Shown piece after piece: positions 5,132 to 63,806 of a stretch of DNA of 64,000 nt. A program made the position numbers and the translations under genes. Positions within the stretch are counted from its first letter, which is position 1, and every line of letters starts with the position of its first letter. This DNA is from a virus (lineage: Duplodnaviria > Caudoviricetes): IMG/VR virus record IMGVR_UViG_3300025597_000009, positions 1-64,000 of that record; one strand, given 5' to 3'. Under the pieces are notes generated by a model. That model was not told the DNA's origin, ran no database searches, and saw nothing but the letters and a program-made list of their open reading frames with translations.

Positions 5132-5481
5132 TACCTAAAAACAGCTTTGGTAAGCCTTTCAAGCGTGATTCCTGGCATCTCACTGGATTCATATAGGTTA
5201 GTTGAGTGTTTGTTTACACGTATATAGCCAGCAGGGTTACCACATTTGTACACATGCTCTGATAATGGTAGTTTATTACCAGAAAGCTTATCAAAATCAA
5301 AGCCCCAACCAATAGAGAATGGATAGTTGTTATCAGTTGGGACACCTACCATTAATACTGGAGGATTCAACTTAAATTTCACTTGGTTAGCCTCTAAGAA
5401 ATACCATTTACGAACTATTTGTTCACTAAATTCAAAACCTAGAGACTCAATAAATGCTACTAGTACTTGTTTATTATCCAT
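5113..5481 (-). CDS. Small 'LGF' paralog family protein
   Basis: N-terminus MDNKQVLVAFIESLGF. Confidence 0.6.
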   Translation of the reverse strand: MDNKQVLVAFIESLGFEFSEQIVRKWYFLEANQVKFKLNPPVLMVGVPTDNNYPFSIGWGFDFDKLSGNKLPLSEHVYKCGNPAGYIRVNKHSTNLYESSEMPGITLERLTKAVFRYCKFLQ

Positions 5482-12892: not shown

Positions 12893-13050
12893 GATGGAGT
12901 TACTATTTGAATTCTACCTTCTTCATCTGCACCAAATTCTTCCTGGGCAAATTTGATAGCCTCTTCTTTTGATGTAAATGTGTCCACATTTACCCATTCC
13001 TCTCTATCCAATTGAGGAATATCAACATAGTACTTAATCTCTTCTTCCAT
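12889..13050 (-). CDS. Small acidic protein (53 aa, below the ORF-track cutoff)
   Basis: MEEEIKYYVDIPQLDREEWVNVDTFTSKEEAIKFAQEEFGADEEGRIQIVTPS*; fills the gap with an ATGA overlap. Confidence 0.55.
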   Translation of the reverse strand: MEEEIKYYVDIPQLDREEWVNVDTFTSKEEAIKFAQEEFGADEEGRIQIVTPS

Positions 13051-44815: not shown

Positions 44816-44923
44816 CCCAGGGAAAAGGAATCGAACCTCTATACAAACTGATTCAGTTAATGAAAGCCTATTATTGGCTTTTATAAAACCTCAGTTTTGC
44901 TCTACCAGTTGAGCTATCCCCGG
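44816..44923 (-). ncRNA. tRNA-like RNA with expanded anticodon arm
   Basis: Acceptor CCGGGGA/TCCCTGG, D-arm TAGCTCAACTGGTAGAGC, T-arm AGAGG-TTCGATT-CCTTT. 43 nt sit where the 7-nt anticodon loop should be. Confidence 0.75.
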
Positions 44924-49587: not shown

Positions 49588-49650
49588 TGTTTAAAGTTGT
49601 TAAATGAAAAATAGAGCAGAGAATACTATCTCTGCTCCAGTGTAAGACTG

Positions 49651-50964
49651 TTAATCAGCTTTTACACTAAATTCCTGATAAGAACCACCAGATCGAATAC
49701 AAAACTTCTGCATTCCTTCATGATCACCTTCCAGGATAAATCCATGGGTTACCACTTTAGGATACCAGCCTTCTTTAATATGGTCTTGGCCATCATTGAT
49801 AATACAAATCTGTGGTCTATCCCCATTAAAGCTAACCTCACCTTCTTTTGTAGGTACACTACCTTTTTTAATAAATTCAATAGTGTTCTCAATTGCTCGT
49901 TGCATGTCAGTACCTCCTCTACCAAATTGGAAATACTTATTAAACTTTTCCCATACATGCAGACATTCTTCTCTAGTCTTGATAACTAACCAATGAGGGT
50001 CTAGGCGGCTTTCAAATGTGCAAATGTAGAGTTCAGCATTTCCCTGACTTACCTGTTCACACCGATTTAGTAGTAAGGCTTTTACCCACCCAATTTTATC
50101 TGAATCATGCATGGAACCAGAGTCATCAATAAGCAGAATAAGTACTTGCTTATTGAAGCTAATTCTAACCCCCTTTTTGATCTCCAGTTGCTTGGTAGCC
50201 ACTTTATAATTAAAGGTGGGCATAGCTAATTGAATAGCTCCAACTTTTTGTACTTCAGAGTATTGCTGTATACGCAACATCCGTGTCTTCCTGGCACTAG
50301 GATCATCTTCTTTGGATTTTGATCTATATGCTTTGATATTTCCTTTCCTGTTTAAAATGGAAAGCTTTTTCAATACATCCAGATTTTCAGCACCTAGTTG
50401 GCCAGCTCGAACACCATTGAATACAGAGGGATCTTGATCCCCTAGTAAAGCTTTCTCAGTGAAACTGTCAGCTGGCATAATTTTACCAACCATCTCAGCA
50501 TTCTCTTTTAGCTTTTTAGCAATATTGGCTCCTGATTGGTTTCCCTGGAATATAGGAAGTTCTTCTTCTTCAGTAGCTCCTCCTTTACCTTTACGGCCAC
50601 CTGCTCCCTGATTAGAAAGAGAATGGGCAATGTTTAAGGCTTGTTCCAGCGGAGTATCCCCATTGAAAACTGATACATCAATGTTCTTTAAGAATTCCTG
50701 AGCTTTCTTATTGAACTCAAACACACGTTCCTCTGCCTTTTCCTGAGTCTCCCCTTCTTTAGGTTCTACATTATCATAGTTCCAGGTAGAAGGTTTGGTA
50801 AAAGCTTTAGCACGTTCATCTTCAGGAAATGAAGTTAGATTGGCAATATCCTGTACTAATTGTACTGAATATGTACCCTGTAAATTCATTTTCTTCACTA
50901 CATGCTCAATCTCTTTTTTGGATGGAGTGATGTAGTTTTTGTGGGGTACAGTTCGTTGGATCAT
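49651..50964 (-). CDS. vWA-domain protein (partner of the MoxR-like ATPase)
   Basis: MIDAS LIDDSGSM, GGTD, INDG. Confidence 0.85.
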   Translation of the reverse strand: MIQRTVPHKNYITPSKKEIEHVVKKMNLQGTYSVQLVQDIANLTSFPEDERAKAFTKPSTWNYDNVEPKEGETQEKAEERVFEFNKKAQEFLKNIDVSVFNGDTPLEQALNIAHSLSNQGAGGRKGKGGATEEEELPIFQGNQSGANIAKKLKENAEMVGKIMPADSFTEKALLGDQDPSVFNGVRAGQLGAENLDVLKKLSILNRKGNIKAYRSKSKEDDPSARKTRMLRIQQYSEVQKVGAIQLAMPTFNYKVATKQLEIKKGVRISFNKQVLILLIDDSGSMHDSDKIGWVKALLLNRCEQVSQGNAELYICTFESRLDPHWLVIKTREECLHVWEKFNKYFQFGRGGTDMQRAIENTIEFIKKGSVPTKEGEVSFNGDRPQICIINDGQDHIKEGWYPKVVTHGFILEGDHEGMQKFCIRSGGSYQEFSVKAD

Positions 50965-50967
50965 TGA

Positions 50968-53291
50968 TTAGGCTAGTGCTCCTAAGAAGTTCAAATCAGT
51001 ATCAGCATTGGTTTTTTCCAAGGCATTATCCAGACAGGTTTTCTGGTATGTTTTCCAGATTTCCCGAAGTTTTTTGTATTGTGGCTGAAACTCATCTCTG
51101 AAGGATTGATCATCCAGAAACTTAATAACTCTCTCAGCTGCTTTACTGTACTGGATGTACCGGATAGGGGTATTCTTATCCACTGGAGGCAAATCAGAAA
51201 GCTGTTTGTGCATAGCATTAAACTTCTCTCTTTCCTGCCGAATAGCTTCAAATTCTTCCATTTGAGACTCAATCTCATTTACATGGTGAGGATCAAAGCC
51301 AGCTACATACTTCAGCCCAGACAAGCCAGCTGTGTTGTACACAATAGCTGCCTTAACAGCTGTTCTTGGAGAAATGAAATTGTTTCTACTTACTTCAGCC
51401 ACAATTTGGGCAAACGTATGCATGGGTTTTTTGAGCACTTTATCAAACAGGAGTGCATAATCTTCCTGATTGTAAGTTTCCCATTCTACCCGGTGCTCTA
51501 AAGGAAAACGCTCCATCAAGGCTTTGATAGAATCATCCTCAGCAATTTCTTCCCGGCTTCTGTTGGTACAAACTACAATACACTTGGTTTTGATGGGTAC
51601 TTGCTGATTTCCATTTCTGAACTGTTTTGAAGTTAGAATATCCTTGAGCTGTTCTAATACGGCTGTAGGAGCATCCAAACCTTCTTCCAGTATAACATAC
51701 TCATGGCTCATGAAACTCCGTTCAATATTATATTCAATGGCACCATGGTCTTGAAATTCTTTCATTTTCAATCCCCCTAACAAGGATTCTATTGTTGAGC
51801 CCTGGCCAAGTGATTGAATAAACGGCTTTTCATCAATAGCCTTAAAGAATGCTTCACTCATTTCACTTTTCTAATTGTTATTAACCACAGGCTTTTTATC
51901 CTGTGCTCTGGAAGTTTCCCTCATTTTCATCAGTTGGTCATTTCCAACTCAGTATAGCATATATTTTCACCTCCAACTCAATGGTAAGGTGGGGAACACT
52001 CGTGGTAGTATTATAGTCTGTTTTACAGGATCAACTACTATGCGTTACACTACCAATAAATCTTTAAGTTATTGGTTAGCTCGGTATTAGCACTTCACTT
52101 TGAGCCTTCACCGATTTTGCTCCCTCATAATCCAAGATATTTCTATCCTGGACGGCAAATCCAAAATTCTTGAAAAGTTGGTATCTGTTGTACTTTCTAT
52201 CTAAATGCAAAGAACTAGTTTCATATAGCTTTTTTAAAATATCAATACTGTCTGGACAACTATAAGAAGTCTCAAAAACAAAGTGGCTTGCTGTTTCTTC
52301 AGAGTTAGCCAATAAGTAATTTCTTTCCCTATAGTTTAAGACCTTGTTAATACCTTGTAAAACATCTTTAGTGCCTAAAAATTTAACAATTGGTTTGTAT
52401 CCACTTGTGGTATGTGTAAATGTAAAGCAACCATCACCATCAAAGTAACCTCTTACAAAAGCTAGTTGATGTTTATTAGGTAGTTGATTTTCAGACGGAA
52501 ATAGTAAAGTTTCAGATTTTTTAGGAGTACATCCTAAACTAATTAGATCTAATCTCATTTGTTTACTATAAAAACAATATCGAGCAGCTTTCCCATCTTT
52601 AGTTAGATAGATTTTATTATCTGCCTTTATAAATTGCTTAAATTTTAACAAATGGTTCATATCACTAATTTTTAATCCTAGTTCAATAGCATTTGTAGTC
52701 GAATGGATTGCACCATCTGCATACAAAAACCCAAGCCAGTAAGCTTTTTCATCAGTATCAATAGTTGAAAAGAGATTATGTTGAGTTCCTCTTTCATTTT
52801 GTCTATTGATAATCTGTATTCCATTAGCTTTGAGTATTTTAGATATTCTTTCTGGTCTTGTTTTGAACATTTTACCTATTTTTTCCAAACTGTAACCTTG
52901 CTTATAATACTGTATGTATTCTTCAGCTGTACCTAATGTTTGATTTTGTTGATTTAATACACATACCCCCTTACTTCTTAGATACTTATTAATAATGTAA
53001 GGTGAATTCCCAAATTGTTTTACAAGAGAAGCTATACTTCTTTGATTTACAACATACTCATACTCAATTAATTTACCTAACTCCTCTTCCATATCTACAC
53101 ATATTTAACTATATGTAAATATACGAATTTTAGATGTGTTTACCATGTCCACCTTTCCCAAACAAGACTACATTTTCATTTGTTATGTACCCTAGGTGTA
53201 GAATTTCAGCAACTTGATCTACATAAATGAAGTTTTTGTTAAGAGCTTCTTTAACAGCTTCTAATGAAATAGAGGTTCCTTTAGATTTCAT
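50968..53291 (-). CDS. MoxR/RavA-like AAA+ ATPase, spliced (exons 53291-53142 and 51870-50968; 350 aa)
   Basis: Exon 1 MKSKGTSIS...ENVVLFGKGGHG plus exon 2 KSEMSEAFF restore Walker A GKGGHGKS. Also Walker B ILEE, CTN, ALMERF, ISPR. Confidence 0.85.
51871..53141 (-). mobile_element. Group I intron within the Walker A codons of the AAA+ gene
   Basis: Exon ends CATGGT (U); guide TTTGCCGT lies near the ORF end. Core AAAATCGGTGAA, AATACCGAG, GTGTAACGCATAG, ATATGCTATAC. Ends ...ACAATTAG|AAA. Confidence 0.85.
52076..53092 (-). CDS. Intron-encoded LAGLIDADG homing endonuclease
   Basis: YWLGFLYADG and FVRGYFDGDG; two N-terminal HTH repeats. Confidence 0.9.
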   Translation of the reverse strand: MEEELGKLIEYEYVVNQRSIASLVKQFGNSPYIINKYLRSKGVCVLNQQNQTLGTAEEYIQYYKQGYSLEKIGKMFKTRPERISKILKANGIQIINRQNERGTQHNLFSTIDTDEKAYWLGFLYADGAIHSTTNAIELGLKISDMNHLLKFKQFIKADNKIYLTKDGKAARYCFYSKQMRLDLISLGCTPKKSETLLFPSENQLPNKHQLAFVRGYFDGDGCFTFTHTTSGYKPIVKFLGTKDVLQGINKVLNYRERNYLLANSEETASHFVFETSYSCPDSIDILKKLYETSSLHLDRKYNRYQLFKNFGFAVQDRNILDYEGAKSVKAQSEVLIPS

Positions 53292-53475
53292 GAAATTTTT
53301 AATAAACAGTAACTAATTGCCTACCTTTTTAGTACAGTTGTCGGCTGTTCTGTAGAAAGAGAAGAAATTGAGAAAGCTTGTATAATTCTATTCACAAAGA
53401 TCAAGGGTCTTTGCTTTCAAATAAGCTTTCTCTAACAACTTCTGGTTATTGTTATTCTATTGTGATAATAGCCAC

Positions 53476-53841
53476 TTAAAACCAATCATGAGGATCATAG
53501 AGCTGTAGTCTGACAAAAGCATGATGCATGTCTTCTTGATCCTGATAATGGTGAATTTCAGTAACTTGAGTAAGTCTCTCTCGTACACTACCTACATAAC
53601 TAGCTCCCTGATACACATCCAATTCCAGAAAAGGCAATTGTTCAGTAGTAAAGCCAGGATACTTTCTGTCCAGAGGAAACTGATAGACTTCCTCATTACA
53701 CTCATTGAGCACACTGATCTTATCAGCATGTTTTACACATCTTAACATAAGGGTATGATTTATAGGGTTATTAATGAGGAATTCAGTTTCTTGGGATAAA
53801 AAACTTATCTTTAATTTAAAGTCAGGTATCCCTTGATGCAA
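53476..53841 (-). CDS. Hypothetical protein
   Basis: Co-oriented ORF. Confidence 0.5.
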   Translation of the reverse strand: MHQGIPDFKLKISFLSQETEFLINNPINHTLMLRCVKHADKISVLNECNEEVYQFPLDRKYPGFTTEQLPFLELDVYQGASYVGSVRERLTQVTEIHHYQDQEDMHHAFVRLQLYDPHDWF

Positions 53842-54023
53842 GTGTTTTTGGTCTTGTCAAAAAGCTTTCCAAATACATGGTCATTAACTTTCTCAATGAC
53901 CCGAAATGTAAAACCATCTACAGTTACACCTGAGTTTCCTTTAAGAATCTCTTCTTTTTTGGTTAGTAACTGCTTAGCAATTGTGGGTAAAAATGGAAAG
54001 AATTTAGTGCCGTTGTGATGCAT
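53811..54023 (-). CDS. Hypothetical protein
   Basis: Co-oriented ORF. Confidence 0.5.
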   Translation of the reverse strand: MHHNGTKFFPFLPTIAKQLLTKKEEILKGNSGVTVDGFTFRVIEKVNDHVFGKLFDKTKNTCIKGYLTLN

Positions 54024-54104
54024 AAGTCAATAACGGTTATTGATATACGTTTAACAAAGTGTAGAGCTACCCTAAGTGTTTGGCTTAAGATAGCTCTAGT
54101 TCAT

Positions 54105-54734
54105 TTAGGCAGCTACTTTATACAATGTACCCTGAATCTTGAGTGTTTTGATAGTCTGAAGATTCACCTGCCGAATACAATCATGAGGTGTTGTTTTCTT
54201 CTTACTTAACTCAACCACTTTCACATACCCTAACACATTTGGGTCCTGACCAGACAAGTATTGACCATTAAGCACCCTTTCTTCCCCTTTCTTTTTCTTA
54301 AAGGTTACAGTAAAGAAACGGCCACCAGCATTGCTCATCAGCTCAAAAGCCTTTTTCTTGCCAATTTTTATGACTTTAGAAGGTTGTTGAACTGGCAGAG
54401 CAGGAGTAGCTACAGCATTAGCTGCAATAGCTTGACCAAAAGCAGCTTGTACATCAGGAGTTTGCAAATTTGTCATGGTAATGTTTGGGTCTGAATAAAT
54501 TCTGAATACACCTGTATCCTCAAAGGTAAATAGGCCTTGAGCAGTAAATCCTTGCATAAGCTTACTTACCAGTTCCTGAGTCCAATTGTATTCTGGGTGA
54601 TCTTCCCTGAGCTTTAATTTTATCTCCAGGGTGGTTACTCGATTGGTAGCTTTGAGCAGTTGTAAGGCTGCATCTAAACAAAGTTGATCTCTTTTACTCA
54701 TGATTTGAGCCAAATCACTTTTTTTATATGGCAC
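54105..54734 (-). CDS. wHTH-like N-terminal plus SH3/WYL-like C-terminal domain protein (likely start MSKRD)
   Basis: VTTLEIKLKLR...WTQELVS; GRFFTVTFKKKKGEERVLNG...IRQVNLQTI. Confidence 0.55.
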   Translation of the reverse strand: MPYKKSDLAQIMSKRDQLCLDAALQLLKATNRVTTLEIKLKLREDHPEYNWTQELVSKLMQGFTAQGLFTFEDTGVFRIYSDPNITMTNLQTPDVQAAFGQAIAANAVATPALPVQQPSKVIKIGKKKAFELMSNAGGRFFTVTFKKKKGEERVLNGQYLSGQDPNVLGYVKVVELSKKKTTPHDCIRQVNLQTIKTLKIQGTLYKVAA

Positions 54735-55906
54735 TGTGACTCATTATAGGCTATGATTTCTGAATTCAATAGCCCATTACCAGCACTAACAAAGGTGCTG
54801 TCAAATCCACGTTCCTTTAGGTTTTTATAGGTAAGAGCAAATTCATTCCCTCTAAACCATCCCTCATACTTAAAAGGATTTCCCACATGTACTTCATACA
54901 CCAGGATTACCTTGTCTGAGTCATATCCAGTATAACCCAATGATTTAGCCATTGTCTCACTGAAATAATTCCCATCACCATACGCTTTACCACTGAACTG
55001 AAAATTCCCTGTTGGTCTGATCTTTAAACCCTGTTCCAGAATTGGAAGTACTGAAGTACATCTTGTACCATGAATGAGTGTTCTGGTCTGTCTGTTCTCT
55101 TGGGAACTCATCCACTGGTTAAATGCTTCATCTTCCCTGGTTTTCTTCACAGAAAATACAGCATGTACTTTTCCAGATCGTCCATGATAGCCTGAACTGA
55201 AATTTTGATCCAGCAAATACTGAATATCAGCATAATCCTCTGTTTCTTCCATTTCAATTCCCAACATATCCAGTAAGGATTGTTGTAACGTGACCTCTGC
55301 TTGGGTTGCTGGCTTTTTGCTAAGCAGTGCAACCTGTGAGGCAATTGCATCCAGATTATCTTGTTCCTGTTCAAAGACTTTGTCTAGGTTAATATTGGGT
55401 AGTAAGTAATCTCCTACTCTGCCCATGTATCTAGGGATCACTGTGTAGATTTCAATCAGCTTTTTGTTAATTGTCAGGGTATCCAGCCGATTTAAAACAC
55501 TCAACTCATTGATTAGCTTTTGAGCAGCTTCTAACTGATGTTGAGTTACCTGAGTAGCTTTAACTGAGTAGGTTTTTCTAACCAAATTATCCCGATAACT
55601 CTGCATGAGCTTTAAAAACTCAGCTACCTTTCTACTAACAGTGTCACCAATAATTGGCTGAGTATCTGTAACAGGATCATCTACTACAGTTGTAGCTACT
55701 AATTCAGTTACATCTTTGTAACCTTTAGCAATCTTTTCCCTTTTCAGGCTATTCCACTTGCTATAAGGATAAGACTTACTAGTGGATGTGCTTTCTACCC
55801 TGCCATAATTGACAGTAAAATTAGCTCCACCAGTATAGACCATCTCGTAGAATTTATTATTGTTACCACTGGTTACCATTAGTAACTTACAATAATCTTG
55901 TTGCAT
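54698..55906 (-). CDS. WGR-domain PARP-family ADP-ribosyltransferase
   Basis: NNKFYEM...YGRV...KIAKGY (WGR), IYTVIPR helical regulatory segment, LIHGT, GKAYGDGNYFS, KSLGY, NSEIIAYN (H-Y-E triad). Confidence 0.88.
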   Translation of the reverse strand: MQQDYCKLLMVTSGNNNKFYEMVYTGGANFTVNYGRVESTSTSKSYPYSKWNSLKREKIAKGYKDVTELVATTVVDDPVTDTQPIIGDTVSRKVAEFLKLMQSYRDNLVRKTYSVKATQVTQHQLEAAQKLINELSVLNRLDTLTINKKLIEIYTVIPRYMGRVGDYLLPNINLDKVFEQEQDNLDAIASQVALLSKKPATQAEVTLQQSLLDMLGIEMEETEDYADIQYLLDQNFSSGYHGRSGKVHAVFSVKKTREDEAFNQWMSSQENRQTRTLIHGTRCTSVLPILEQGLKIRPTGNFQFSGKAYGDGNYFSETMAKSLGYTGYDSDKVILVYEVHVGNPFKYEGWFRGNEFALTYKNLKERGFDSTFVSAGNGLLNSEIIAYNESQCHIKKVIWLKS

Positions 55907-56001
55907 ATAGTAATTGAAGTTTCTTTTAGAAATTAGAAGAAAAAGTACCCAGCCAGCTTAGCCAGCTGGATAACCCGACTCATAACCTAAATACTCTTGT
56001 C

Positions 56002-58230
56002 TTAATCAGCCAGGAGTTGAGTCACTCCAGCTACATCTTTAGCCCAGTCCAGATCATAGACTTCATTGGCCTCAGCTGGCTCACTGATAATAGTAAGCCC
56101 TTGAGCTAAGGCTTTTATTACTAGTAACTTCTGAATACTGAATTTGGCAGATAGCTTATTGAGCATAGCCTTTACATTGTCCATACCACTTTTACCTGCA
56201 TTACCTGTTTGGGGCATTTCTAGCCAGACAATTTGTTCAGCCTGAAGATCCAGGTAACCAAAAATCAACCCTTGACCTAATTCTGATTTAACAGAAATCA
56301 TCTGCTCTACACAGGAAGGATCAAAAGCAACTCCAGATGCAGTTACTTTCATAGGATTTGTAGAAGCCATCCAACCTACTCTCAGATTCATTTCCAGAGC
56401 ACTCTTATTATAAGCTCTGCAATGGAAGATCACACCAGAGGCCCCATTAGCTTGTAGCTTTTCTACATCCAGGTTAATAAATTCAGCTGTACCAATCTTA
56501 TTAGGAATGTGTTGAATATCCCCTGAATGAGTGGCCCCTGTAATGTTAAGGTGACCGAAGTAGCAGATGTCTGTATGATTTGGATAGACCACATCAGCAT
56601 ACAAATCCATATCTAGGTGTTGAGCTGGTAATCCTTCTCCCCAATTCATAAACAGTCTGACTTGTTTAGATTGTAGTGGGAATCGTTGTCCTTGCAAGAA
56701 ATGAGCTAAGTCCTGTACAGTTTCTGATCTGTCTCCAATGCTAAATGGAATGTACTCAAGATCAGGATGAATGTACATGGTTTTGTTTTCATTAGGAGTA
56801 GCAGCAAATCTCTGGAAGATAGCTTCATCTACTAAGGACTCAACTAGTTCCATGTATTGCTTTCTTTCTGTAGCTGACATAACTGCTACCAATGGATGTG
56901 GGTCAATAGTTTTAGTTAATCCAGCTCCTAATGGTTTTACCACTCTAGTTTGACCAGAAAAGTAAACTTTAGCAGCCTGAGTTAATGTAACAATGAGCCT
57001 CATAGGTAGCTTAGTAAGCACTTCTTTAAACGCATCCATAACTAGGGCAGCATCATACTTCAGCAACAAACTAAATAGCATTCTAGAAAATACTCCTGGA
57101 CGTTGTTTTAGTAAGTGCAATCCTAGAGTAAGACTGTGCTCTTTCATGGCCTTGTTGACCAAATGAGCCCAACCTAAACCAGTACCTTGATTTTGGAAGA
57201 TATACAGCAGATCCTTTAGTCGCTCAAAACCAGCTTGCTTGGCAAACTCATTCAATCTAGCTGCTCTGATGAACCTAACCCACATTTCTCTGTGAGGATT
57301 CATAGAGTCTAATACTGGCCTGATGCCATCAAATTCATTCATCCACTCAGCAATCTTCCTGGCTTCTGGTCTAGAATACTTTAGTTTCAGTTGCTCCTTT
57401 TTATTGGCAACCTCACTAGTATTCACAGAACTCCGGTATCTACTGTAGCCTCTTCTACTATCTCTTGCTGTTTTGTTGAGAATAGTCTTAGGCTTAACAA
57501 TCTGAAGATTACCCGTATGTTTATACCACAGATATCTTAACACATCAGAAGGCAGCTTAAAAAGCTTACTAGCTTCTTTACGTTTACCCAAGGCTACCAA
57601 TTGATCCACCAGGAACATTTTGGTTTCAATCATGCCTACTTCTACCTCTGGTACTGGGTAGATTTCTAGCAAGGTTAACACAGCTTCTTTCTGTGTACCA
57701 TCTAAAGGAGTCTTAGACTTCAACAGATTATCAAAGTAGTTCAGTAACTCCCGGTCTCCCCATAGCTTGAGTATTTTCAGCTTAGAACCCTGGCCTACTG
57801 GAATCTCCATATCAGCCTCAAAAGGAGTACCACAAAAAGGGCAACCATTGTACTTTTCCAGCTCAAACACATTGGCCGGGATAGTGTGTCCACAAACTAA
57901 AGTAGTTCCTGATCCACCAACTAACTGGTTAAACCAGGTAAGCACATGAGCAAACTCACTGTCTTTAGGTGGCACATCCCACTGTTTGATCAGAGGAGTC
58001 CAATTTAATTTGCTGCCTGTAACAGTCCTTACAAAATCCACATACAAATCCTGAAATTCTTCTGTGGTTGTTTTCCAGATAGACAGGGCTTTTGAGTCCA
58101 ATGTATAGCCTAGTTCCTTCAATTTAGCTAGGTTTACAAAGGTGGAGACCCAGTTCTGAACACTGGTAATCTCTTGGGCAGGCACATAGATAGCACCTTG
58201 CCGAATGGCAATTTTGTTGTGTTTTTCCAT
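56002..58230 (-). CDS. Large protein with prokaryotic RING-like Zn finger, helical core and C-terminal TerD-like domain
   Basis: CGH...YNGCPFCG, DVLRY, RPGVFSRML, VRLFMNW, DMDL, HSGDI, TAEFINLD. Confidence 0.75.
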   Translation of the reverse strand: MEKHNKIAIRQGAIYVPAQEITSVQNWVSTFVNLAKLKELGYTLDSKALSIWKTTTEEFQDLYVDFVRTVTGSKLNWTPLIKQWDVPPKDSEFAHVLTWFNQLVGGSGTTLVCGHTIPANVFELEKYNGCPFCGTPFEADMEIPVGQGSKLKILKLWGDRELLNYFDNLLKSKTPLDGTQKEAVLTLLEIYPVPEVEVGMIETKMFLVDQLVALGKRKEASKLFKLPSDVLRYLWYKHTGNLQIVKPKTILNKTARDSRRGYSRYRSSVNTSEVANKKEQLKLKYSRPEARKIAEWMNEFDGIRPVLDSMNPHREMWVRFIRAARLNEFAKQAGFERLKDLLYIFQNQGTGLGWAHLVNKAMKEHSLTLGLHLLKQRPGVFSRMLFSLLLKYDAALVMDAFKEVLTKLPMRLIVTLTQAAKVYFSGQTRVVKPLGAGLTKTIDPHPLVAVMSATERKQYMELVESLVDEAIFQRFAATPNENKTMYIHPDLEYIPFSIGDRSETVQDLAHFLQGQRFPLQSKQVRLFMNWGEGLPAQHLDMDLYADVVYPNHTDICYFGHLNITGATHSGDIQHIPNKIGTAEFINLDVEKLQANGASGVIFHCRAYNKSALEMNLRVGWMASTNPMKVTASGVAFDPSCVEQMISVKSELGQGLIFGYLDLQAEQIVWLEMPQTGNAGKSGMDNVKAMLNKLSAKFSIQKLLVIKALAQGLTIISEPAEANEVYDLDWAKDVAGVTQLLAD

Positions 58231-58237
58231 AAAAGAG

Positions 58238-58295
58238 AAGGTAATTACAGAGCTATAGGAGCTTTTTTAGTGAGAAGTAAGCTCTGTTTGACCTT
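58238..58295 (-). promoter_or_regulatory. Y-RNA-like structured 5' leader of the RING-TerD gene
   Basis: AAGGT-C-AA-ACAGAGCT-TACTTCT...AGCTCTGT-AA-TT-ACCTT; ends 7 nt before the ATG. Confidence 0.75.
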
Positions 58296-58923
58296 ATTTA
58301 TTTTTGATGATTTTAATGGCTTTAATTACCAACTGGATGGTTTCTTTTCTGGCTTCCAAATAACCAGTTCTTATGAATGGTGTAATGAGTGTGTGTTTGG
58401 GGCTACAATACTGTTCTAACTCAACACTTTCAGGGGCATGTACATGGCCCACTAAAGTACCAACAGTAAAAGAACTACAGATATAGACACTCAAGCTAAA
58501 TTCATGCAAAGCCCACATTACAATCTGATCAAATGTAGGAGCTCTAAACATAACGTTAGAGTCTATACGTGGATTGAATGGAGGTAAGAGGTCTTCATTA
58601 CCTAAGTAAATTTCTTTATCCTTCCCAGTATAATAACCCAAAGTAGGCCAGTCAAAACCTAATTTTTTAAACTCCAGTGATTCTTCATAAGAAAGAAAGG
58701 TCTCTCCCAAAGTTGGAATTGGCTCAAAGGTTTCATTAGCTTCTAAATAAGCCATGATTGTTTCATCACTTGGGCTTTCAGGCAGTTCTTTATGATAAAT
58801 CAAGCTATCAATTAGGTTTGCACCATGTTTGACTTTGCTTTCCTTTACTTCTGCAATAATCTGCTCTTGACTTCCATAGTATTTCCTTACCATGTCCAGC
58901 ATTTTGAATTGTCTGATCTTCAT
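58294..58923 (-). CDS. Hypothetical protein
   Basis: FLSYEESLEFKKLGFD...APTFDQIVMW, a Bacteroidota phage motif. Confidence 0.65.
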   Translation of the reverse strand: MKIRQFKMLDMVRKYYGSQEQIIAEVKESKVKHGANLIDSLIYHKELPESPSDETIMAYLEANETFEPIPTLGETFLSYEESLEFKKLGFDWPTLGYYTGKDKEIYLGNEDLLPPFNPRIDSNVMFRAPTFDQIVMWALHEFSLSVYICSSFTVGTLVGHVHAPESVELEQYCSPKHTLITPFIRTGYLEARKETIQLVIKAIKIIKNK

Positions 58924-58929
58924 ATGGAT

Positions 58930-59292
58930 TTAAGCAAATTCTGTTTGACCTTTGTTTAAGAATTTTGAAACTATTTCTGTGTATAAATCAGGCTTTTTTT
59001 GTCCAGTAAATCTACCCCATTGTGTTTGACAATGTGGACATTCCCAAACCAATACTCCATCATAAAAACCTTCATATTCAATTCCAATTAAATCAGAAAA
59101 ATAAGTAGGGTTTTCTGGAGTATAGCCATACATTCCAGCTACTTCAATAATTTGCTCATCAGTCTTATCTTTATAGTGAGCATGATTAGGATTAGTTGGG
59201 TCTTCTTTAACTTCTCTAAAGAATTGTAAAACATCTTTTCTATTAAAGCTGCCTCCACATTCAGGACAATTATCTAGGTTTAAAATGTTCAT
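58930..59292 (-). CDS. Zn-ribbon protein
   Basis: CPEC...IGIE..YDGVLVWECPHC..WGRFTG. Confidence 0.65.
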   Translation of the reverse strand: MNILNLDNCPECGGSFNRKDVLQFFREVKEDPTNPNHAHYKDKTDEQIIEVAGMYGYTPENPTYFSDLIGIEYEGFYDGVLVWECPHCQTQWGRFTGQKKPDLYTEIVSKFLNKGQTEFA

Positions 59293-59651
59293 TATGCAGG
59301 TACATCAGGTGAGAAAATACGGTTTTCAGGCTTACTCCAATCAATCCACTCCATGTCACAATATGGACGATTAGAACCATTAAGTTGTACAGGAATGTAC
59401 ATTCCCCAACTGGGTGTAGGTTGTAAGCAAAGTGCATCATTGGCCAGCATGCCTACAATCAAATCATGACAGGTGTCATCTTCATACTTCTGTTTACCAG
59501 CTTCTGTAAAACAAACCCAGATGCCTTCATTAGGCCCAACAGGTACCAGTAACTGAACTTTACCCAGGTGTCGCTGGTCATAACTAAAAGGGCTGAATGT
59601 TAAACTCCGGCCATCTTTTAGGGTTAGTGTAGCTGTTTCTTGAATGGTCAT
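59292..59651 (-). CDS. Hypothetical protein
   Basis: EGIWV...LANDAL...RP. Confidence 0.6.
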   Translation of the reverse strand: MTIQETATLTLKDGRSLTFSPFSYDQRHLGKVQLLVPVGPNEGIWVCFTEAGKQKYEDDTCHDLIVGMLANDALCLQPTPSWGMYIPVQLNGSNRPYCDMEWIDWSKPENRIFSPDVPA

Positions 59652-59836
59652 TTTAGTTCTTGTTTATGTAAAAACTCAAGAATTTCCTGGTCAGTTGGAT
59701 TCGGTTTTAATAGGCCACTTTTAATGCACAAAAACATAAGTGGGCTATTATGGTATTTGTCTTGTTTGAACTGGGCAACTAGATCTCCTTCTAAATACTC
59801 TCTGATTGAGAATAAGATTTTGAATCTTCTAGTCAT
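59648..59836 (-). CDS. Small protein similar to the N-terminus of 58294..58923
   Basis: RRFKIL...NPTDQEILEFL versus RQFKML...SPSDETIMAYL. Confidence 0.5.
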   Translation of the reverse strand: MTRRFKILFSIREYLEGDLVAQFKQDKYHNSPLMFLCIKSGLLKPNPTDQEILEFLHKQELK

Positions 59837-59853
59837 ACAATAATCAATTGGTT

Positions 59854-60281
59854 ATTAGCACCCTCTTCTCACTATCCTTTTCTGTCAAGCAGTAAGTGTA
59901 GGGTCACGTAGTTATTATATCTCGTTGTAGTAAGGACTGGGAATCCTCTGAGGTGATCGTTCCTCCATAATTAACTACTTGCTGAGAACTCATTAATGTG
60001 GAGTTGGAGTGATTCAGGAGTGTATAGCATTACCTTGTCACCAACTTTGCAAATTTCCCTTTACAGGTACTTTCCTGACATTCTATGCTCTTTCTCAAGG
60101 AGCCCACATTTCTAGGATTTCTCTTTCTGATAGCTACGGGTTTAAATTCTCTAATGTCTTAATATGAAGAGACCTAAGCATTATTAAGTAGACTGCTACT
60201 ACTCAGAAACTCATTAACTAGAGCTAGTATCTTTATTGAAATTAGATTAGTATAATTTCAACCAGGATCAATGTTTAGCCT
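59854..60281 (-). ncRNA. Large structured ncRNA, unit B (428 nt), family unrecognised
   Basis: Shares five ordered sequence blocks and covarying stems with unit A; no ORF of 60 aa or more. Confidence 0.72.
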
Positions 60282-60571
60282 ATTAGCACCCCTTAGTCAC
60301 TGTTACCTTCCATAGAGGAGGTGGTTTACCAGTCGGGTCAAGCTGAGAACTCATTTGTGTTGTATAACGAATGTCTAAACGATACTCATGTTATATTTAC
60401 ATCATTCCTTTCTCAAGGGAACAACACATCCATCATTACTGAAGCTAATCCTCCTTCTCTTCTATTGGCGAAGATTTGTTGGGTTGTCTTTAGCTAGTTT
60501 GTCAATTCAAACTTGGTATCTTTTATCAAGGCTAGATTAGTATAGCCTGACCAGGAATCAATGTTTAGCCT
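60282..60571 (-). ncRNA. Large structured ncRNA, unit A (290 nt), family unrecognised
   Basis: AGGCTAAACATTGAT..., TACTAATC loop, CTTGAGAAA loop, AATGAGTTCTCAGC, GGGTGCTAAT end. Confidence 0.72.
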
Positions 60572-60577
60572 GTTATT

Positions 60578-60714
60578 TTCCATGCTATCTGGACTCGAAC
60601 CAGAATCAATCAGAGGACTTACACCTCAACTTCAGTCCTGTTTAGGTGCTGCTTGGATTTACCCAAGCCCCGTATCTCTACAGGGGGATCTGCCATTCTC
60701 CCATGGACATGGAA
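60578..60714 (-). ncRNA. tRNA-like RNA (~137 nt) with a multi-hairpin insert
   Basis: Terminal stem TTCCATGT/GCATGGAA, D-like GGGAGAATGGCAGATCCC, T-arm TCTGG-TTCGAGT-CCAGA, three internal hairpins. Confidence 0.65.
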
Positions 60715-60720
60715 AAACTC

Positions 60721-61413
60721 TTAATTGACTTTAAATGAAATGTAGTAATGATTATTGTTAACAATTTCAACTCCTGGCACATTATAAATAGACGTTAAGT
60801 TATCTACACCAGCTTGAAATACATCATGCAATTCCTTGTAAGGTTCCGCATCATAATCTACCATTGTTGTGTAATATTTACTAAACTTTTCATGTCCCCA
60901 GGACTCATTCAAGAGAAATCTGCATAATTGATTCTCAGGCTTTATAAAAGCCTGCTCTAAGAAGTAAGTACAAGTTGGGCCAAGAGTGTAAGGCAATGAA
61001 TACTCAGGCTTAAACCGAAGATCAAAATTAATAACTGCCTTAGCTGTCACAATAGCTGGTTTTACACAATCCACTAAAGTAACCTGAGCACAATCAGAAA
61101 AATACTGTACATTATTTACTTTACTAGTTGCAGGATAAGCCTGTTCTAATTCTGCTAAAGCAGCCTCAAAAGCCTCAACAGAAGTACTATAATAAGTTTC
61201 TCCTGTTAAACAGAAAAAGGCTTTTACACTGCTTAAAGGCCCAACAAAGCCTTGTAAAGGCTGTTTGTATAACTGCTTATCTTTGTTAACAAATGAAGCA
61301 GCTAACCGATAGCCACCACCCATAAGCTTTTCAGTTGGTAACCAGATGACTGGTCTAAACTTGTTTTGTTCAGGGCTAAAATTTACTGTTATATTTCCAA
61401 GTAAACTATCCAT
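60721..61413 (-). CDS. Hypothetical protein
   Basis: 230 aa ORF. Confidence 0.6.
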   Translation of the reverse strand: MDSLLGNITVNFSPEQNKFRPVIWLPTEKLMGGGYRLAASFVNKDKQLYKQPLQGFVGPLSSVKAFFCLTGETYYSTSVEAFEAALAELEQAYPATSKVNNVQYFSDCAQVTLVDCVKPAIVTAKAVINFDLRFKPEYSLPYTLGPTCTYFLEQAFIKPENQLCRFLLNESWGHEKFSKYYTTMVDYDAEPYKELHDVFQAGVDNLTSIYNVPGVEIVNNNHYYISFKVN

Positions 61414-61416
61414 GGC

Positions 61417-61869
61417 TTATGCTTCAAAAATAGATAAATACAGTTTTTCAATCTTCTTGTAAATCCACTCATACACATCCCATAACAGCTCACCAAACAT
61501 CCAGTTGAAGGCTGAAAAGGGCTAGAAAAACCACCATCTAAATACATGATCTTTTAGTATAAAATACTTCTTTTCATCTGGCTTTTTCTTTAATTCTTGG
61601 CCTTTGAAGTATGTCCTAACTAAAGAGAAAATGAAGCCTATACTTAAATAATACAGGATATTTTCCACTGTCAAATAACTGAAAATCGGAAAATTACTCC
61701 AGTAATAACAGCAAATCACAAAAGCAATCAGAATACCAAATGCAGTAGCTAAACTGTTGTGCTTATCAGCTACTGCCAATAGCAATACTATAGCTACCAC
61801 TAAGCCAAAAAAGGCAAAAGCACTACCAAACAGGCTAAAAGCCATCCAGGTTTGAAACCAAGTCTCCAT
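61417..61869 (-). pseudogene. Membrane protein interrupted by an in-frame TAG at 61522-61524
   Basis: Frame continues RWWFF*PFSAFNWMFGELLWDVYEWIYKKIEKLYLSIFEA to TAA at 61417, 3 nt before the next ATG. Confidence 0.6.
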
Positions 61870-62282
61870 TAATTGAAAAGGTTTATTAAAAGTTGCAGAA
61901 AATCAATGTGTAAATGATACCTGTTCAGTACAATTAGTAATAGAAGTACTACAGATATATATCCATCAATACTAACAGCAAATCCTTCTTTTTTAATTTT
62001 AAAGATATTCCAAAACAAAATTGACCAGCAGAAAAACACAACAAATAAAAACCATTGACTAGTAAAGAAGCCAATAAACATCCAACACCAATATAAAAAT
62101 ATTAGTCCGGCTATATTTTTATTGGCATTTTGAGCCTTTGTTTTAAGTCGTTCGAGCATAGCTACATGTTTTGCTGGCTCTATTACTGCATGAAACTCAA
62201 ATACTAGAGCTAGACTAGTCCAACCATAAAATAAAAAACTAAGCATGCATGTAAAGGTTAATGACTCCCCAGATAAATTCAC
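61869..62282 (-). CDS. Multi-TM membrane protein
   Basis: Four hydrophobic segments. Confidence 0.6.
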   Translation of the reverse strand: MNLSGESLTFTCMLSFLFYGWTSLALVFEFHAVIEPAKHVAMLERLKTKAQNANKNIAGLIFLYWCWMFIGFFTSQWFLFVVFFCWSILFWNIFKIKKEGFAVSIDGYISVVLLLLIVLNRYHLHIDFLQLLINLFN

Positions 62283-62727
62283 TAAAGGCTGTATTCAAAT
62301 GCCAATTAAAAAATATAGCATTAACAGAAATAATACCTTGAAGTAGTATAATACCAAGTGTATTAAATCCTTGCCAATCATTGGTTAACCACCTGCTATT
62401 AAATTGTCTGGCAGTAATAATATTCGAGATGATGAGTACACCTATATTGCTGTGAAACACAACAAGCAACCCTACTAAATTGAAGTAACGATAGATAGTA
62501 TCTATACTAGGCAATATCCAAGCTAACCCAAATTCAGTATCATCTAGCAGATTAACAATTCTTTCTGGTAGTAATTTATGTCTTATCAAATACGATAAAT
62601 CATAATAAACCATCACACTGTAAGAAGGGTTAATCAGTAAATAGTAGTACCAAATGACAAATAGTAGGCCTACACTACCATAAATAATCTGAAGAGCCCT
62701 CCAGAATAGCATAAAGGATTCAAACAT
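62239..62727 (-). CDS. Multi-TM membrane protein
   Basis: Several hydrophobic segments. Confidence 0.55.
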   Translation of the reverse strand: MFESFMLFWRALQIIYGSVGLLFVIWYYYLLINPSYSVMVYYDLSYLIRHKLLPERIVNLLDDTEFGLAWILPSIDTIYRYFNLVGLLVVFHSNIGVLIISNIITARQFNSRWLTNDWQGFNTLGIILLQGIISVNAIFFNWHLNTAFSEFIWGVINLYMHA

Positions 62728-62766
62728 AATAATGCATGGTTTTTAAGTGAACAATAGAAAAAAAAT

Positions 62767-62892
62767 GGCCAGGTAATCGTGATTGTATTTCAGTCTTTTG
62801 CTCTACCAACTGAGCTATACCAGCGTTAGCTGATACCAGGAATTGAACCTGGGACCCAAAGTTTTTAGAAGTAACATTCACTTGACCTGACC
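62767..62892 (-). ncRNA. Y-RNA-like (YrlA-like) RNA with a circularly permuted tRNA module
   Basis: Bulged-C terminal helix GGTCAGGT-C-AA/TT-ACCTGGCC enclosing T-arm CCAGG-TTCAATT-CCTGG, a closed acceptor-like hairpin, then D-arm GCTCAGTTGGTAGAGC. Confidence 0.8.
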
Positions 62893-62899
62893 AATAAGG

Positions 62900-62971
62900 A
62901 AGTCTGGTAATCAATAATGTAATTACCTGTTTCAAAAAGTTTTTAGAAGTAACATTATTTTGACCAGACTC
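62900..62971 (-). ncRNA. Y-RNA-like RNA, minimal
   Basis: GAGTCTGGT-C-AA-AATAATGT-TACTTCTAAAAAC...ACATTATT-GA-TT-ACCAGACTT. Confidence 0.75.
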
Positions 62972-62973
62972 AG

Positions 62974-63044
62974 TTACCCAGGGAAGATTCGAACTCCCAC
63001 CAAGAGGACCAAAACCTCTTGTGCTACCATTACACCACCGGGTA
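62974..63044 (-). tRNA. tRNA-Gln (UUG)
   Basis: Acceptor TACCCGG/CTGGGTA, anticodon arm AGAGG-TTTTGGT-CCTCT, T-loop TTCGAAT. Confidence 0.92.
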
Positions 63045-63127
63045 GGGTTAATAAAGCAATCATTCAACTATTTTCGTAGTCATCATAGAGTTGTAGAAGT
63101 AAGTTGAATTTGGCCTTATTAATAAGA

Positions 63128-63200
63128 AAATCAGGTAATCCATACACTAATTTCAGTTTACCAATCTGTTTTTAGAAGTAAGTGTGTGTTGACCTGATCT
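63128..63200 (-). ncRNA. Y-RNA-like RNA, minimal
   Basis: AGATCAGGT-C-AA-CACACACT-TACTTCTAAAAAC...AGTGTATG-GA-TT-ACCTGATTT. Confidence 0.75.
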
Positions 63201-63202
63201 TG

Positions 63203-63275
63203 TGAGACCTACAGGATTTGAACCTGTAACCTTCTCATTAAAAGTGAGAAGCTCTACCAATTGAGCTAAGGCCTC
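63203..63275 (-). tRNA. tRNA-Lys (UUU)
   Basis: Acceptor GAGGCCT/AGGTCTC, anticodon arm TCTCA-CTTTTAA-TGAGA. Confidence 0.92.
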
Positions 63276-63361
63276 AGGAAACTCATCTAATTCAAAGAAA
63301 AAGATGAGTAAGCATCTTGTATGAGAAAAAAAACTAATCGGGTTTACCAGTTAAATGGTAG

Positions 63362-63435
63362 TAGGAATACCTGGACTTGAACCAGGGGCCTCAACATTAT
63401 CAGTGTTGTACTCTAACCAACTGAGCTATATTCCT
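63362..63435 (-). tRNA. tRNA-Ile (GAU)
   Basis: Acceptor AGGAATA/TATTCCT, anticodon arm CAACA-CTGATAA-TGTTG. Confidence 0.92.
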
Positions 63436-63504
63436 AGATTTTGTGCATAAATATTCCCCAATACCTATGCACATGTCCTTTTAGTTAACGTCCATTATAA
63501 TGGG

Positions 63505-63578
63505 TAGTGGGTGAGAGGCTCGAACTCCCAACTTCCTGCTTAGAAGGCAGGATTTCTATCCAATTGAATTAACCCACC
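63505..63578 (-). tRNA. tRNA-Arg (UCU)
   Basis: Acceptor GGTGGGT/ACCCACT, anticodon arm CCTGC-CTTCTAA-GCAGG. Confidence 0.9.
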
Positions 63579-63638
63579 AGAAAAAAAACTCTTATAATTC
63601 AAGGTGTATATAAGAGTCTTGTTCACCGTAACTTGAGT

Positions 63639-63723
63639 TTAATCAGGCAATCTACCTGCTAAGTCAAATCCCTATTTTGATGCCTATGCAGGCTAGAAGT
63701 AAGCTAGGTATTGGCCTGATTAA
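63639..63723 (-). ncRNA. Y-RNA-like RNA
   Basis: TTAATCAGGC-C-AA-TACCTAGCT-TACTTCT...AGCAGGTA-GA-TT-GCCTGATTAA; has a compensatory C-G where the other copies have U-A. Confidence 0.72.
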
Positions 63724-63798
63724 TTCATTGAATAACAACTAATTGGGAGTAATTAGCTGTTTAACTATACTATCGTATCACACGCTCACCATGCAATA

Positions 63799-63806
63799 CA
63801 AAGATA
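63799..63806 (-). promoter_or_regulatory. Bacteroidota-type -7 promoter element upstream of the tRNA/ncRNA cluster
   Basis: TATCTTTG on the minus strand, ~75 nt before the first Y-like RNA. Confidence 0.5.

Follow-up and report, generated by a model that had tools for sequence, protein, structure and literature searches.

The 64-kb window analyzed here covers the start of a 100.6-kb viral record in IMG/VR (IMGVR_UViG_3300025597_000009, Caudoviricetes), a record that is only about 43% complete. Between positions 49651 and 63806, the window carries a run of small RNAs, tRNAs, and protein genes, every one of them on the minus strand. Do these genes make up a single system, or do separate systems lie side by side? 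An earlier note on this DNA had correctly seen the shared strand and had read the region as one co-functional, ribonucleoprotein (RNP)-centered island. We find instead a mosaic made up of four or more independent modules, among which a single one is the RNP that the note had suspected. That module (58232-63724 plus 56002-58230) joins six Y-like RNAs to the gene for a 742-amino-acid (742-aa) protein with a Ro60-like helical domain. The second module is a WGR-PARP gene with its 209-aa companion, the third is an intron-split MoxR gene with a vWA gene, and the fourth is a pair of large RNAs. Conservation of Ro60/Y RNA particles extends from bacteria to humans; what they do in bacteria has, to our knowledge, been worked out in only two or three species. 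The reading that we favor, and hold to be probable, is that the first module belongs to a second class of Ro-type RNP, which is tied to RNA repair in Bacteroidota and was captured by a phage, and that the other genes are separate modules.

Six copies of the Y-like RNA were found in the phage, and a covariance model, R1, was trained on these six copies alone. Copies 1 to 5 lie at 63638-63724 (66.9 bits with R1), 63126-63202 (80.4 bits), 63047-63123 (79.8 bits), 62898-62973 (79.1 bits), and 62764-62895 (73.3 bits); copy 6 lies at 58232-58301 (64.4 bits). Common to all are a 5′ strand with GGYCAA and a bulged C, a 3′ strand with AUURCC, two A-U pairs that never vary, and a second helix that does. 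The loop motif UUACUUCU, which immediately follows the variable second helix, is invariant in the six copies. In the six-copy alignment, compensatory change was present in 14 of the 20 proposed pairs, and 92% of cells were paired, compared with 26 to 41% when the partners were slid. The earlier note had recognized Y-like RNAs here, and the observation now extends to a set of six covarying copies. The Y-like RNAs are an RNA family absent from Rfam 15, defined by the covariance model and the alignment. Copies 1 to 5 stand more than 4 kb from the 742-aa gene, among tRNA genes, and have terminator-like ends of their own. Copy 6 fills the leader of the 742-aa gene and ends about 2 nucleotides (nt) before its ATG.

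Copy 5 carries an inserted, permuted tRNA-like module and is followed by a T-run. With cmscan, the insert aligned to positions 23 to 88 of the YrlA model (RF02553), which comprise the T arm, the closed acceptor-like stem, and the D arm. In a local search this match reached 32.5 bits (E = 9.4e-6), short of the gathering score of 69, and the other five copies had no match to YrlA. A different kind of mimicry, in which UUACUUCUAA would imitate the anticodon loop CUUCUAA of tRNA-Arg(UCU), was considered and rejected: bacterial copies of the RNA keep only UUACUUC, and the bases that follow vary. Three other viral contigs (92.7, 48.3, and 4.8 kb) hold one Y-like RNA each, at 5279-5347, 12914-12989, and 1926-1986, with R1 scores of 65, 53, and 38 bits. 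No copy of the Ro-like protein was found in these records, which are incomplete (5 to 63% complete). The RNA at 12914-12989 comes directly after a T-arm-like sequence.

The association of this RNA with the protein gene was then followed in bacteria. Eighty Bacteroidota loci, most of them from Flavobacterium, were gathered with the 742-aa protein and scanned with R1. The scan gave 230 matches, all on the strand of the gene for the 742-aa homologue and nearly all within about 2 kb upstream of it. As in the phage, a Y-like copy fills the leader position in most of the bacterial loci, where it usually stops some tens of bases short of the start codon. Structure was retained when phage and bacterial copies were aligned together (89 sequences): 16 of the 20 pairs showed compensatory change, 91.5% of cells paired, and none of 500 shuffles reached the observed covariation score. 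When five bacterial genomes were scanned whole, 10 of the 11 R1 matches fell directly upstream of the gene for the 742-aa homologue. The Y-like RNA and the 742-aa gene are a conserved RNA-protein pair across Bacteroidota.

The locus of Flavobacterium johnsoniae has five RNA units, including tRNA-like units comparable to the module in copy 5. One tRNA-like RNA (9612-9731 of that locus) has an acceptor stem, a D arm, and a T arm, and its anticodon arm is a circularly permuted Y-like helix; its sole match in Rfam was a weak one to tmRNA (27.7 bits). At 9340-9480 of the same locus, two near-identical, palindrome-bearing repeats resembling ACTGCGCAAAATAATTGCGTAGT lie between the RNA array and a divergent WYL regulator gene and may be the operators of that gene.

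Canonical Ro60 homologues, which carry the TROVE domain, are also present in Bacteroidota. R1 had no match in 21 canonical TROVE loci of this phylum. Scanning with Rfam gave YrlA or Deinococcus Y RNA matches in 14 of 20 such loci, all below the gathering score, and the YrlA candidates had partial scores of 36 to 47 bits, similar to that of copy 5. Because R1 is absent from TROVE loci, where YrlA- or Deinococcus-type Y RNAs occur instead, each protein class appears to have an RNA class of its own. Among 301 sampled Bacteroidota genomes, 18 had canonical TROVE genes, 7 had the Ro-like/TerD family, and none had both; among five probed genomes, two had both.

The protein partner is encoded at 56002-58230. 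Profiles and models divide its 742 residues into an N-terminal domain, a RING-like zinc knuckle (CxH...CPFC), a Ro60/TROVE-like helical ring (about residues 159 to 480), a TerD domain (about residues 520 to 690), and C-terminal helices. Its relatives number more than 2,000, with lengths of about 746 aa and identities of about 45%, and come mostly from Flavobacterium and other Bacteroidota. Two peptide patterns searched in IMG/VR returned no relative. A single four-ligand zinc site is conserved (C113, H115, C130, and C133), and Prok-RING_4 (PF14447) scored 18.7 bits against a cutoff of 27. A related family is NCBIfam NF041916 (MXAN_6230/SCO0854 RING family), matched at an E value of 2e-32 over residues 10 to 695 with 112 bits, against an equivalog cutoff of 600; no paper on the SCO0854/MXAN_6230 family was found in the literature searched. 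The earlier note had described a leader-bearing RING-TerD gene. The leader RNA, the zinc knuckle, and the TerD fold hold up, and the two named domains flank a predicted Ro60-like helical ring of 320 residues that the note had not listed. In a side search, a 695-aa Bacteroidota open reading frame (ORF; contig C45:96902-97879) matched the C-terminal half of the Ro-like/TerD family only (profile positions 396 to 726, E = 3e-23) and may be a relative that has diverged or that has a different head.

To compare folds, the full-length protein was modeled with a mean predicted local distance difference test (pLDDT) score of 75. A separate model of the helical domain, made from 43 sequences, reached a pLDDT of 84 and was compared with 48,161 PDB chains in a wide VIA search. 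Ranked first, with a modest Z score of 7.8 over 251 residues and a root mean square deviation (rmsd) of 6.7 Å, was the Ro60 protein of phage phiLo (9l5y_B). Deinococcus radiodurans Rsr (2nvo_A) ranked second (Z 6.8, 267 residues), and Xenopus Ro60 (1yvp_A) ranked tenth (Z 5.9, 252 residues). All three solved Ro60 structures are therefore among the top ten, and each alignment covers the whole helical domain. In the Atlas, a structural neighbor of the helical domain came from the MXAN_6230/SCO0854 family, with a TM score of 0.70. A vWA/MIDAS domain closing the ring was not found; the C-terminal domain has instead the fold of a TerD beta-sandwich (VIA, 2qz7_B with Z 12.0 and 2kxt with Z 11.5; Foldseek, 3ibz with E = 3e-4). 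Pfam TerD had no match at an E value of ≤0.01, so that the TerD likeness is at the level of fold only. Searched with phmmer against the PDB, the 742-aa protein had no match. These comparisons of predicted models suggest that the protein is related to Ro60 at the level of fold.

The bacterial genes beside the pair point to RNA repair. RtcB is encoded downstream, on the same strand as the Ro-like gene, in 30 of the 80 loci. An alternative cassette of an Rnl1-like ligase, Hen1, and a 394-aa protein was present in 11 to 16 of the 80 loci (Rnl1-like ligase in 16, Hen1 in 11). A divergent WYL-WCX regulator gene was present in 46 of the 80, nine of them from outside Flavobacterium. Among 119 neighbors from loci other than those of Flavobacterium, the commonest families were WYL/WCX (8), the secretion-tail domain Por_Secre_tail (6), RtcB (3), RlaP (3), Band_7 (2), and RNase_T (2). 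The proposal of an RNP-centered system in the earlier note is therefore kept for the Y-like RNA/742-aa pair, which is conserved beside RtcB, Rnl1-like/Hen1, RlaP, and WYL genes in Bacteroidota; it is not kept for the island as a whole.

The remaining genes of the region do not travel with this pair. When the other 21 phage ORFs were compared with the sequences within 10 kb of the 80 bacterial homologues of the 742-aa gene, no relative was found save for one marginal AAA+ match. The gene next to the 742-aa gene (54698-55906) encodes a PARP-like ADP-ribosyltransferase with a WGR domain, a helical domain, and a catalytic ADP-ribosyltransferase domain (Pfam PARP, 64.4 bits with a cutoff of 26.7; WGR, 22 bits). 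It aligned to the PARP1 catalytic fragment at an E value of 1e-10, with LIHGTR, GNYFSE, and VYEVHVGN at the H, Y, and E positions, in agreement with the assignment of a WGR-PARP protein made earlier. It is accompanied by a 209-aa ORF (54105-54734) that matched phrog_33401 and phrog_2267, both of unknown function. Relatives of the PARP with 51 to 59% identity were found in nine viral contigs, and the 209-aa ORF was directly downstream in eight of the nine (tblastn). It is the only co-conserved neighbor; the nine contigs are without the Ro-like gene, a Y-like RNA (by R1), MoxR, or vWA.

The MoxR and vWA domains seen in the earlier note were likewise confirmed, by bpMoxR and VWA_2 matches, and the MoxR gene proved to be split just after the Walker A lysine. 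Exon 1, a 53-aa ORF at 53139-53291 with an approximate boundary, ends in the Walker A sequence GKGGHGK. Exon 2, at 50968-51861, matched Pfam bpMoxR at 39.7 bits over profile positions 57 to 168 only, as well as NCBIfam RavA (E = 4e-6). The Pfam match of exon 2 begins at profile position 57, and with Walker A on a separate upstream exon, MoxR function would depend on the predicted splicing. The partner, a 437-aa protein with a C-terminal vWA domain (Pfam VWA_2, 32.7 bits), is encoded at 49651-50964. Between the two exons lie about 1.28 kb of intervening sequence (51862-53138), probably a group I intron, within which there is an ORF at 52076-53092. This ORF had been taken for a winged helix-turn-helix-SH3 protein; it encodes a homing endonuclease of the LAGLIDADG type (phrog_4645, E = 8e-50; Pfam LAGLIDADG_3). 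A 91-bp segment (51877-51967) is 94.5% identical to a stretch within the three-piece gyrA coding sequence span of Bacillus phages AR9 and PBS1, and because of this identity a mobile group I intron core appears to be shared across very distant phages. No Rfam intron match was obtained in the MoxR intervening sequence, and no MoxR relatives were found in IMG/VR by the method used. Elsewhere in the window, positions 35495-35727 (minus strand) matched a group I intron model at 58.2 bits, which exceeds the Rfam gathering score.

The two large noncoding RNAs of the earlier note are a homologous pair. Unit A (60282-60575, about 290 nt) and unit B (59850-60285, about 430 nt) abut as tandem paralogues, with conserved blocks and covarying helices in the alignment (A6). 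A search of viral sequences with the 15-mer AGGCTAAACATTGAT from the 5′ end of the large RNA recovered 80 loci, about half of them by chance. That the 15-mer matched by chance only was ruled out by 26 of the 80 loci (18 distinct), which have additional blocks in common: AAAGAUACUAAUCCUGAAUUGACAGG, a GNRA hairpin that covaries, GAUGUGUUGUUCCCUUGAGAAAGGAA, ACAACACAAAUGAGUUCUCAGC, GACCCUAC, and AGAGGGUGCUAA. RNAalifold gave the family a covarying long-range helix and a pairing of the 5′ end with the center. No model in Rfam 15 matched, and the large RNAs are a phage RNA family absent from Rfam. The family is present in at least 18 further distinct IMG/VR contigs, none of which has a Y-like RNA; tRNA genes are found in 6 of the 18 loci. 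Upstream of unit A, a 144-nt structured RNA candidate (60572-60715) is closed by a 9-bp stem and contains a T-arm-like hairpin; its fold energy is −49 kcal/mol (z −3.1). The earlier note had called this element a tRNA-like RNA. It does fold well and has the T-arm-like hairpin, but it matched neither the tRNA model nor any other Rfam model, and we grade the assignment as weak. Such a T-arm element was not seen upstream of the large RNA in the other contigs of that family.

The layout of the region also divides it into units. Read down the minus strand from 63806, the order is TATCTTTG, Y-like copy 1, a hairpin with a run of eight T residues, tRNA-Arg, tRNA-Ile, tRNA-Lys, copies 2 and 3, tRNA-Gln, and copies 4 and 5. 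Below copy 5 come three membrane-protein ORFs, a 230-aa ORF, the 144-nt element, the two large RNAs, four small ORFs, copy 6, and the 742-aa gene. These are followed by a hairpin, the WGR-PARP gene, the 209-aa ORF, a second hairpin, MoxR exon 1, the LAGLIDADG gene, MoxR exon 2, the vWA gene, and a last hairpin. All of these hairpins are terminator-like. The one at 63581-63619, with the T8 run, stands between copy 1 and tRNA-Arg; the one at 55946-55972 (12 bp, 6 GC, T-run) stands between the Ro-like and PARP genes; those at 54062-54098 and 49612-49639 follow the PARP/209-aa pair and the vWA gene, respectively. They contradict one continuous transcription unit running down from 63806. As for the promoter element that the earlier note had placed there, TATCTTTG (63799-63806, upstream of copy 1) does fit TAnnTTTG, the Bacteroidota −7 promoter consensus, but the full −33/−7 pattern (TTTG-N17-23-TAnnTTTG) is absent there, and the element is graded as weak.

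The other features of the region and the window were largely as described before. The four tRNAs are tRNA-Arg(TCT) at 63501-63579, tRNA-Ile(GAT) at 63361-63435, tRNA-Lys(TTT) at 63202-63275, and tRNA-Gln(TTG) at 62973-63044, all on the minus strand. The membrane proteins are three small ones (62239-62727, 61869-62282, and 61522-61869, together spanning 61522-62727), each with two to four transmembrane-like hydrophobic segments in a hydropathy scan; the 162-aa protein among them had no Pfam or PHROG match. The 230-aa ORF (60721-61413) matched no family in Pfam, PHROGs, or PADLOC. Four small ORFs of 62, 119, 120, and 209 aa (58294-59836) likewise had no family in the PHROG search. The 120-aa ORF (58930-59292, minus strand), just upstream of the Ro-like gene region, has two CxxC pairs (CPEC...CPHC), probably a zinc ribbon, and no family match. 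The RNA ligase noted elsewhere in the window is of the Rnl2 type (3854-4459). A 108-nt match to the tRNA model at 44816-44923 (minus strand; 43.6 bits) was not called by ARAGORN and may be a tRNA that contains an intron or is unusual in some other way.

Several observations weigh against a Ro-type RNP linked to RNA repair. The GNCGAA or CGAA motif of canonical bacterial Y RNAs (PMC4201824, PMC12135203), whose Rsr-binding form is GNCGAA(N0-1)G (PMC4201824), is absent from every Y-like copy; all of them have GGYCAA with a bulged C. The VIA Z scores of 6 to 8 lie within the chance range for helical repeats and below the safe range of the tool, and an rmsd of 6.7 Å is large. Foldseek, run with both the full model and the helical domain, had no Ro60 match, and TROVE (PF05731) had no Pfam match to the protein at an E value of ≤0.01 and none in the whole record at an E value of ≤10. 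With hhalign, the alignment to 22 Bacteroidota TROVE proteins had a probability of 0.3 to 0.5%, which is not significant. That alignment, though not significant, is collinear and counts in favor of the relationship (KYSR / HPK / P-R-L..A-Y in the family and KY.R / HPK / PfRf..A in TROVE), and we take KY.R and HPK to be RNA-contacting residues of Xenopus Ro60. Flavobacterium dominates the 80 loci, so that part of the neighborhood signal is shared ancestry, and the 100-kb phage record, about 43% complete, has no RtcB or Rnl1 gene. The modest Z scores and silent sequence profiles would also fit an account without any Ro-type RNP, in which the protein resembles Ro60 only as generic helical repeats do and the hairpins belong to a TerD-type stress protein, either as cis-regulatory repeats (leader or attenuator) or as a small mobile repeat. 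One copy does occupy the leader in the phage and in most bacterial loci, and TerD proteins are usually tied to stress and metal responses (PMC7824862). Five phage copies, however, lie more than 4 kb from the gene, between tRNAs and with terminator-like ends of their own, and some copies carry tRNA-like modules, as YrlA does. The three solved Ro60 clusters all rank among the ten best of 48,161 chains, their alignments covering the full domain, and the operon partners are RNA ligases. We regard this cis-regulatory account as the least likely of those considered here.

A second account accepts the RNP and gives it an offensive or decoy role in the phage, where it would titrate or redirect host exoribonucleases, or where the RNAs would hijack or saturate a host Ro-like protein and so blunt the response to RNA damage. 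The Ro60 protein of phage phiLo, with its Y-like RNAs, binds host polynucleotide phosphorylase and reduces its activity (PMC12135203). The occurrence of one Y-like RNA without the protein in each of three viral records fits the use of a host protein, and the phage record is without RtcB. Those three records are only 5 to 63% complete, however, and the protein may be missing from the fragments; the bacterial neighbors are ligases and end-healing enzymes rather than nucleases, save for two RNase_T matches, and the phage has an RNA ligase. We consider this account unlikely, though a good deal less remote than the others. The remaining alternative is the single island itself, in which the whole of 49651-63806 would be co-transcribed and the RNP, PARP, and MoxR/vWA would act jointly against host ribotoxins. 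The shared strand and the Rnl2-type ligase count in its favor, and conflict systems can contain ADP-ribosyltransferases, MoxR-vWA pairs, or RNA-repair proteins (PMC7824862, PMC7159879). The comparison across related phages that the earlier note had proposed nevertheless returned independent distribution, the outcome that the note had itself named as refuting. The components were found apart in the 80 bacterial loci, the nine PARP contigs, the three records with a Y-like RNA and no protein, and the at least 18 large-RNA contigs, and no PADLOC model matched any of the eight island proteins. Because there is no such co-occurrence in bacterial or viral loci and terminator-like hairpins stand between the units (after the Ro-like gene, the PARP pair, and the vWA gene), we read the components as separate modules and hold a joint island to be very improbable.

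For the favored reading, a Ro-type particle taken from Bacteroidota, we propose by analogy that the RNAs and the protein associate physically, that synthesis of the protein is autoregulated, and that the module acts during infection. The 742-aa protein would bind the conserved bulged-C helix (GGYCAA...AUURCC) of the Y-like RNAs, as Rsr does with Y RNA. The Y-like RNAs, one of them a tRNA mimic, may gate the ring or tether it to RNA-processing, repair, or turnover enzymes, and the leader copy would let free protein feed back on its own synthesis. The phage probably took the module from RNA-repair operons of Bacteroidota (with RtcB, Rnl1-like/Hen1, or RlaP and a divergent WYL gene) and amplified the RNAs among its four tRNA genes. 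In infection, the module probably keeps tRNA or rRNA functional or redirects host RNA turnover. A nucleotide-like ligand has been proposed for TerD (PMC7159879), and its binding would offer a possible route for control of the particle.

We find evenly balanced a wider proposition, which is that Bacteroidota, and through the SCO0854 family perhaps also Actinomycetota and Myxococcota, have a second, so far unrecognized class of Ro-type RNP. Such a class would have a TROVE-like ring, a TerD domain (binding calcium or a nucleotide ligand) displacing vWA, its own class of Y RNA (the GGYCAA bulged helix and UUACUUC, with tRNA-mimic variants), and WYL-controlled RtcB or Rnl-Hen1 operons, and phages would capture the whole particle or the RNAs alone to manipulate RNA repair. 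If this is true, a parallel system with another closing domain, another RNA motif, and another regulator would show which features of a Ro particle are essential, and the genetically tractable F. johnsoniae would gain a testable RNA-repair operon. Exploitation of the particle by phages is suggested both by the module in this phage and by orphan Y-like RNAs elsewhere among phages. Two new RNA families, the Y-like RNA and the large phage RNA, are delimited here. Further, the resolution of an apparent 14-kb island into a mosaic is a caution against over-reading gene adjacency in phage genomes.

How do these elements compare with known systems? ROOL and GOLLD are large, ornate, ORF-free RNAs of phage genomes that are sometimes found near tRNA genes. 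The two large RNAs share each of these properties. They are shorter (290 to 430 nt), however, have other conserved blocks, and match no Rfam model at an E value of ≤1, those of ROOL and GOLLD included. For the protein, the relationship to NF041916 (MXAN_6230/SCO0854) is one of sequence over the full length, but its 112 bits are far under the equivalog cutoff of 600.

Phage-encoded Ro60 proteins with Y-like RNAs are known from Thermus phage phiLo (PDB 9L5Y; PMC12135203) and from mycobacteriophages, CcrColossus, and Bacillus phage G (PMC4201824). The module described here is like these in joining a phage-encoded, probably Ro-type protein to adjacent Y-like RNAs, and phiLo Ro60 is the best structural match of the helical domain (Z 7.8, a score in the range reached by chance for helical repeats). 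The known phage proteins are canonical, with TROVE and vWA domains and CGAA-motif RNAs, whereas here the protein is RING_SCO0854-like and the RNAs are interleaved with tRNA genes. In Salmonella, Rsr (the bacterial Ro60) and the RNAs YrlA and YrlB are encoded in the rsr-yrlBA-rtcBA operon, which is regulated by RtcR (PMC4201824, PMC7790460). As in that system, a putative helical ring protein (by fold search) is accompanied by several small RNAs beside its gene, each with a conserved bulged helix, and one RNA has a tRNA mimic made of T arm, closed stem, and D arm; linkage to RtcB and a divergently encoded, ligand-sensing regulator are also shared. The protein differs from Rsr in having TerD in place of vWA/MIDAS, an extra N-terminal domain, a zinc knuckle, and no Pfam TROVE match. 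The RNAs differ from the Salmonella Y RNAs in their motif (GGYCAA and UUACUUC, not GNCGAA), in their number (up to six), and in the placement of one of them in the mRNA leader. The bacterial Ro-like loci thus mirror the rsr-yrlBA-rtcBA operon (PMC7790460), with a WYL-WCX regulator in the place of RtcR, a CARF-sigma54 activator.

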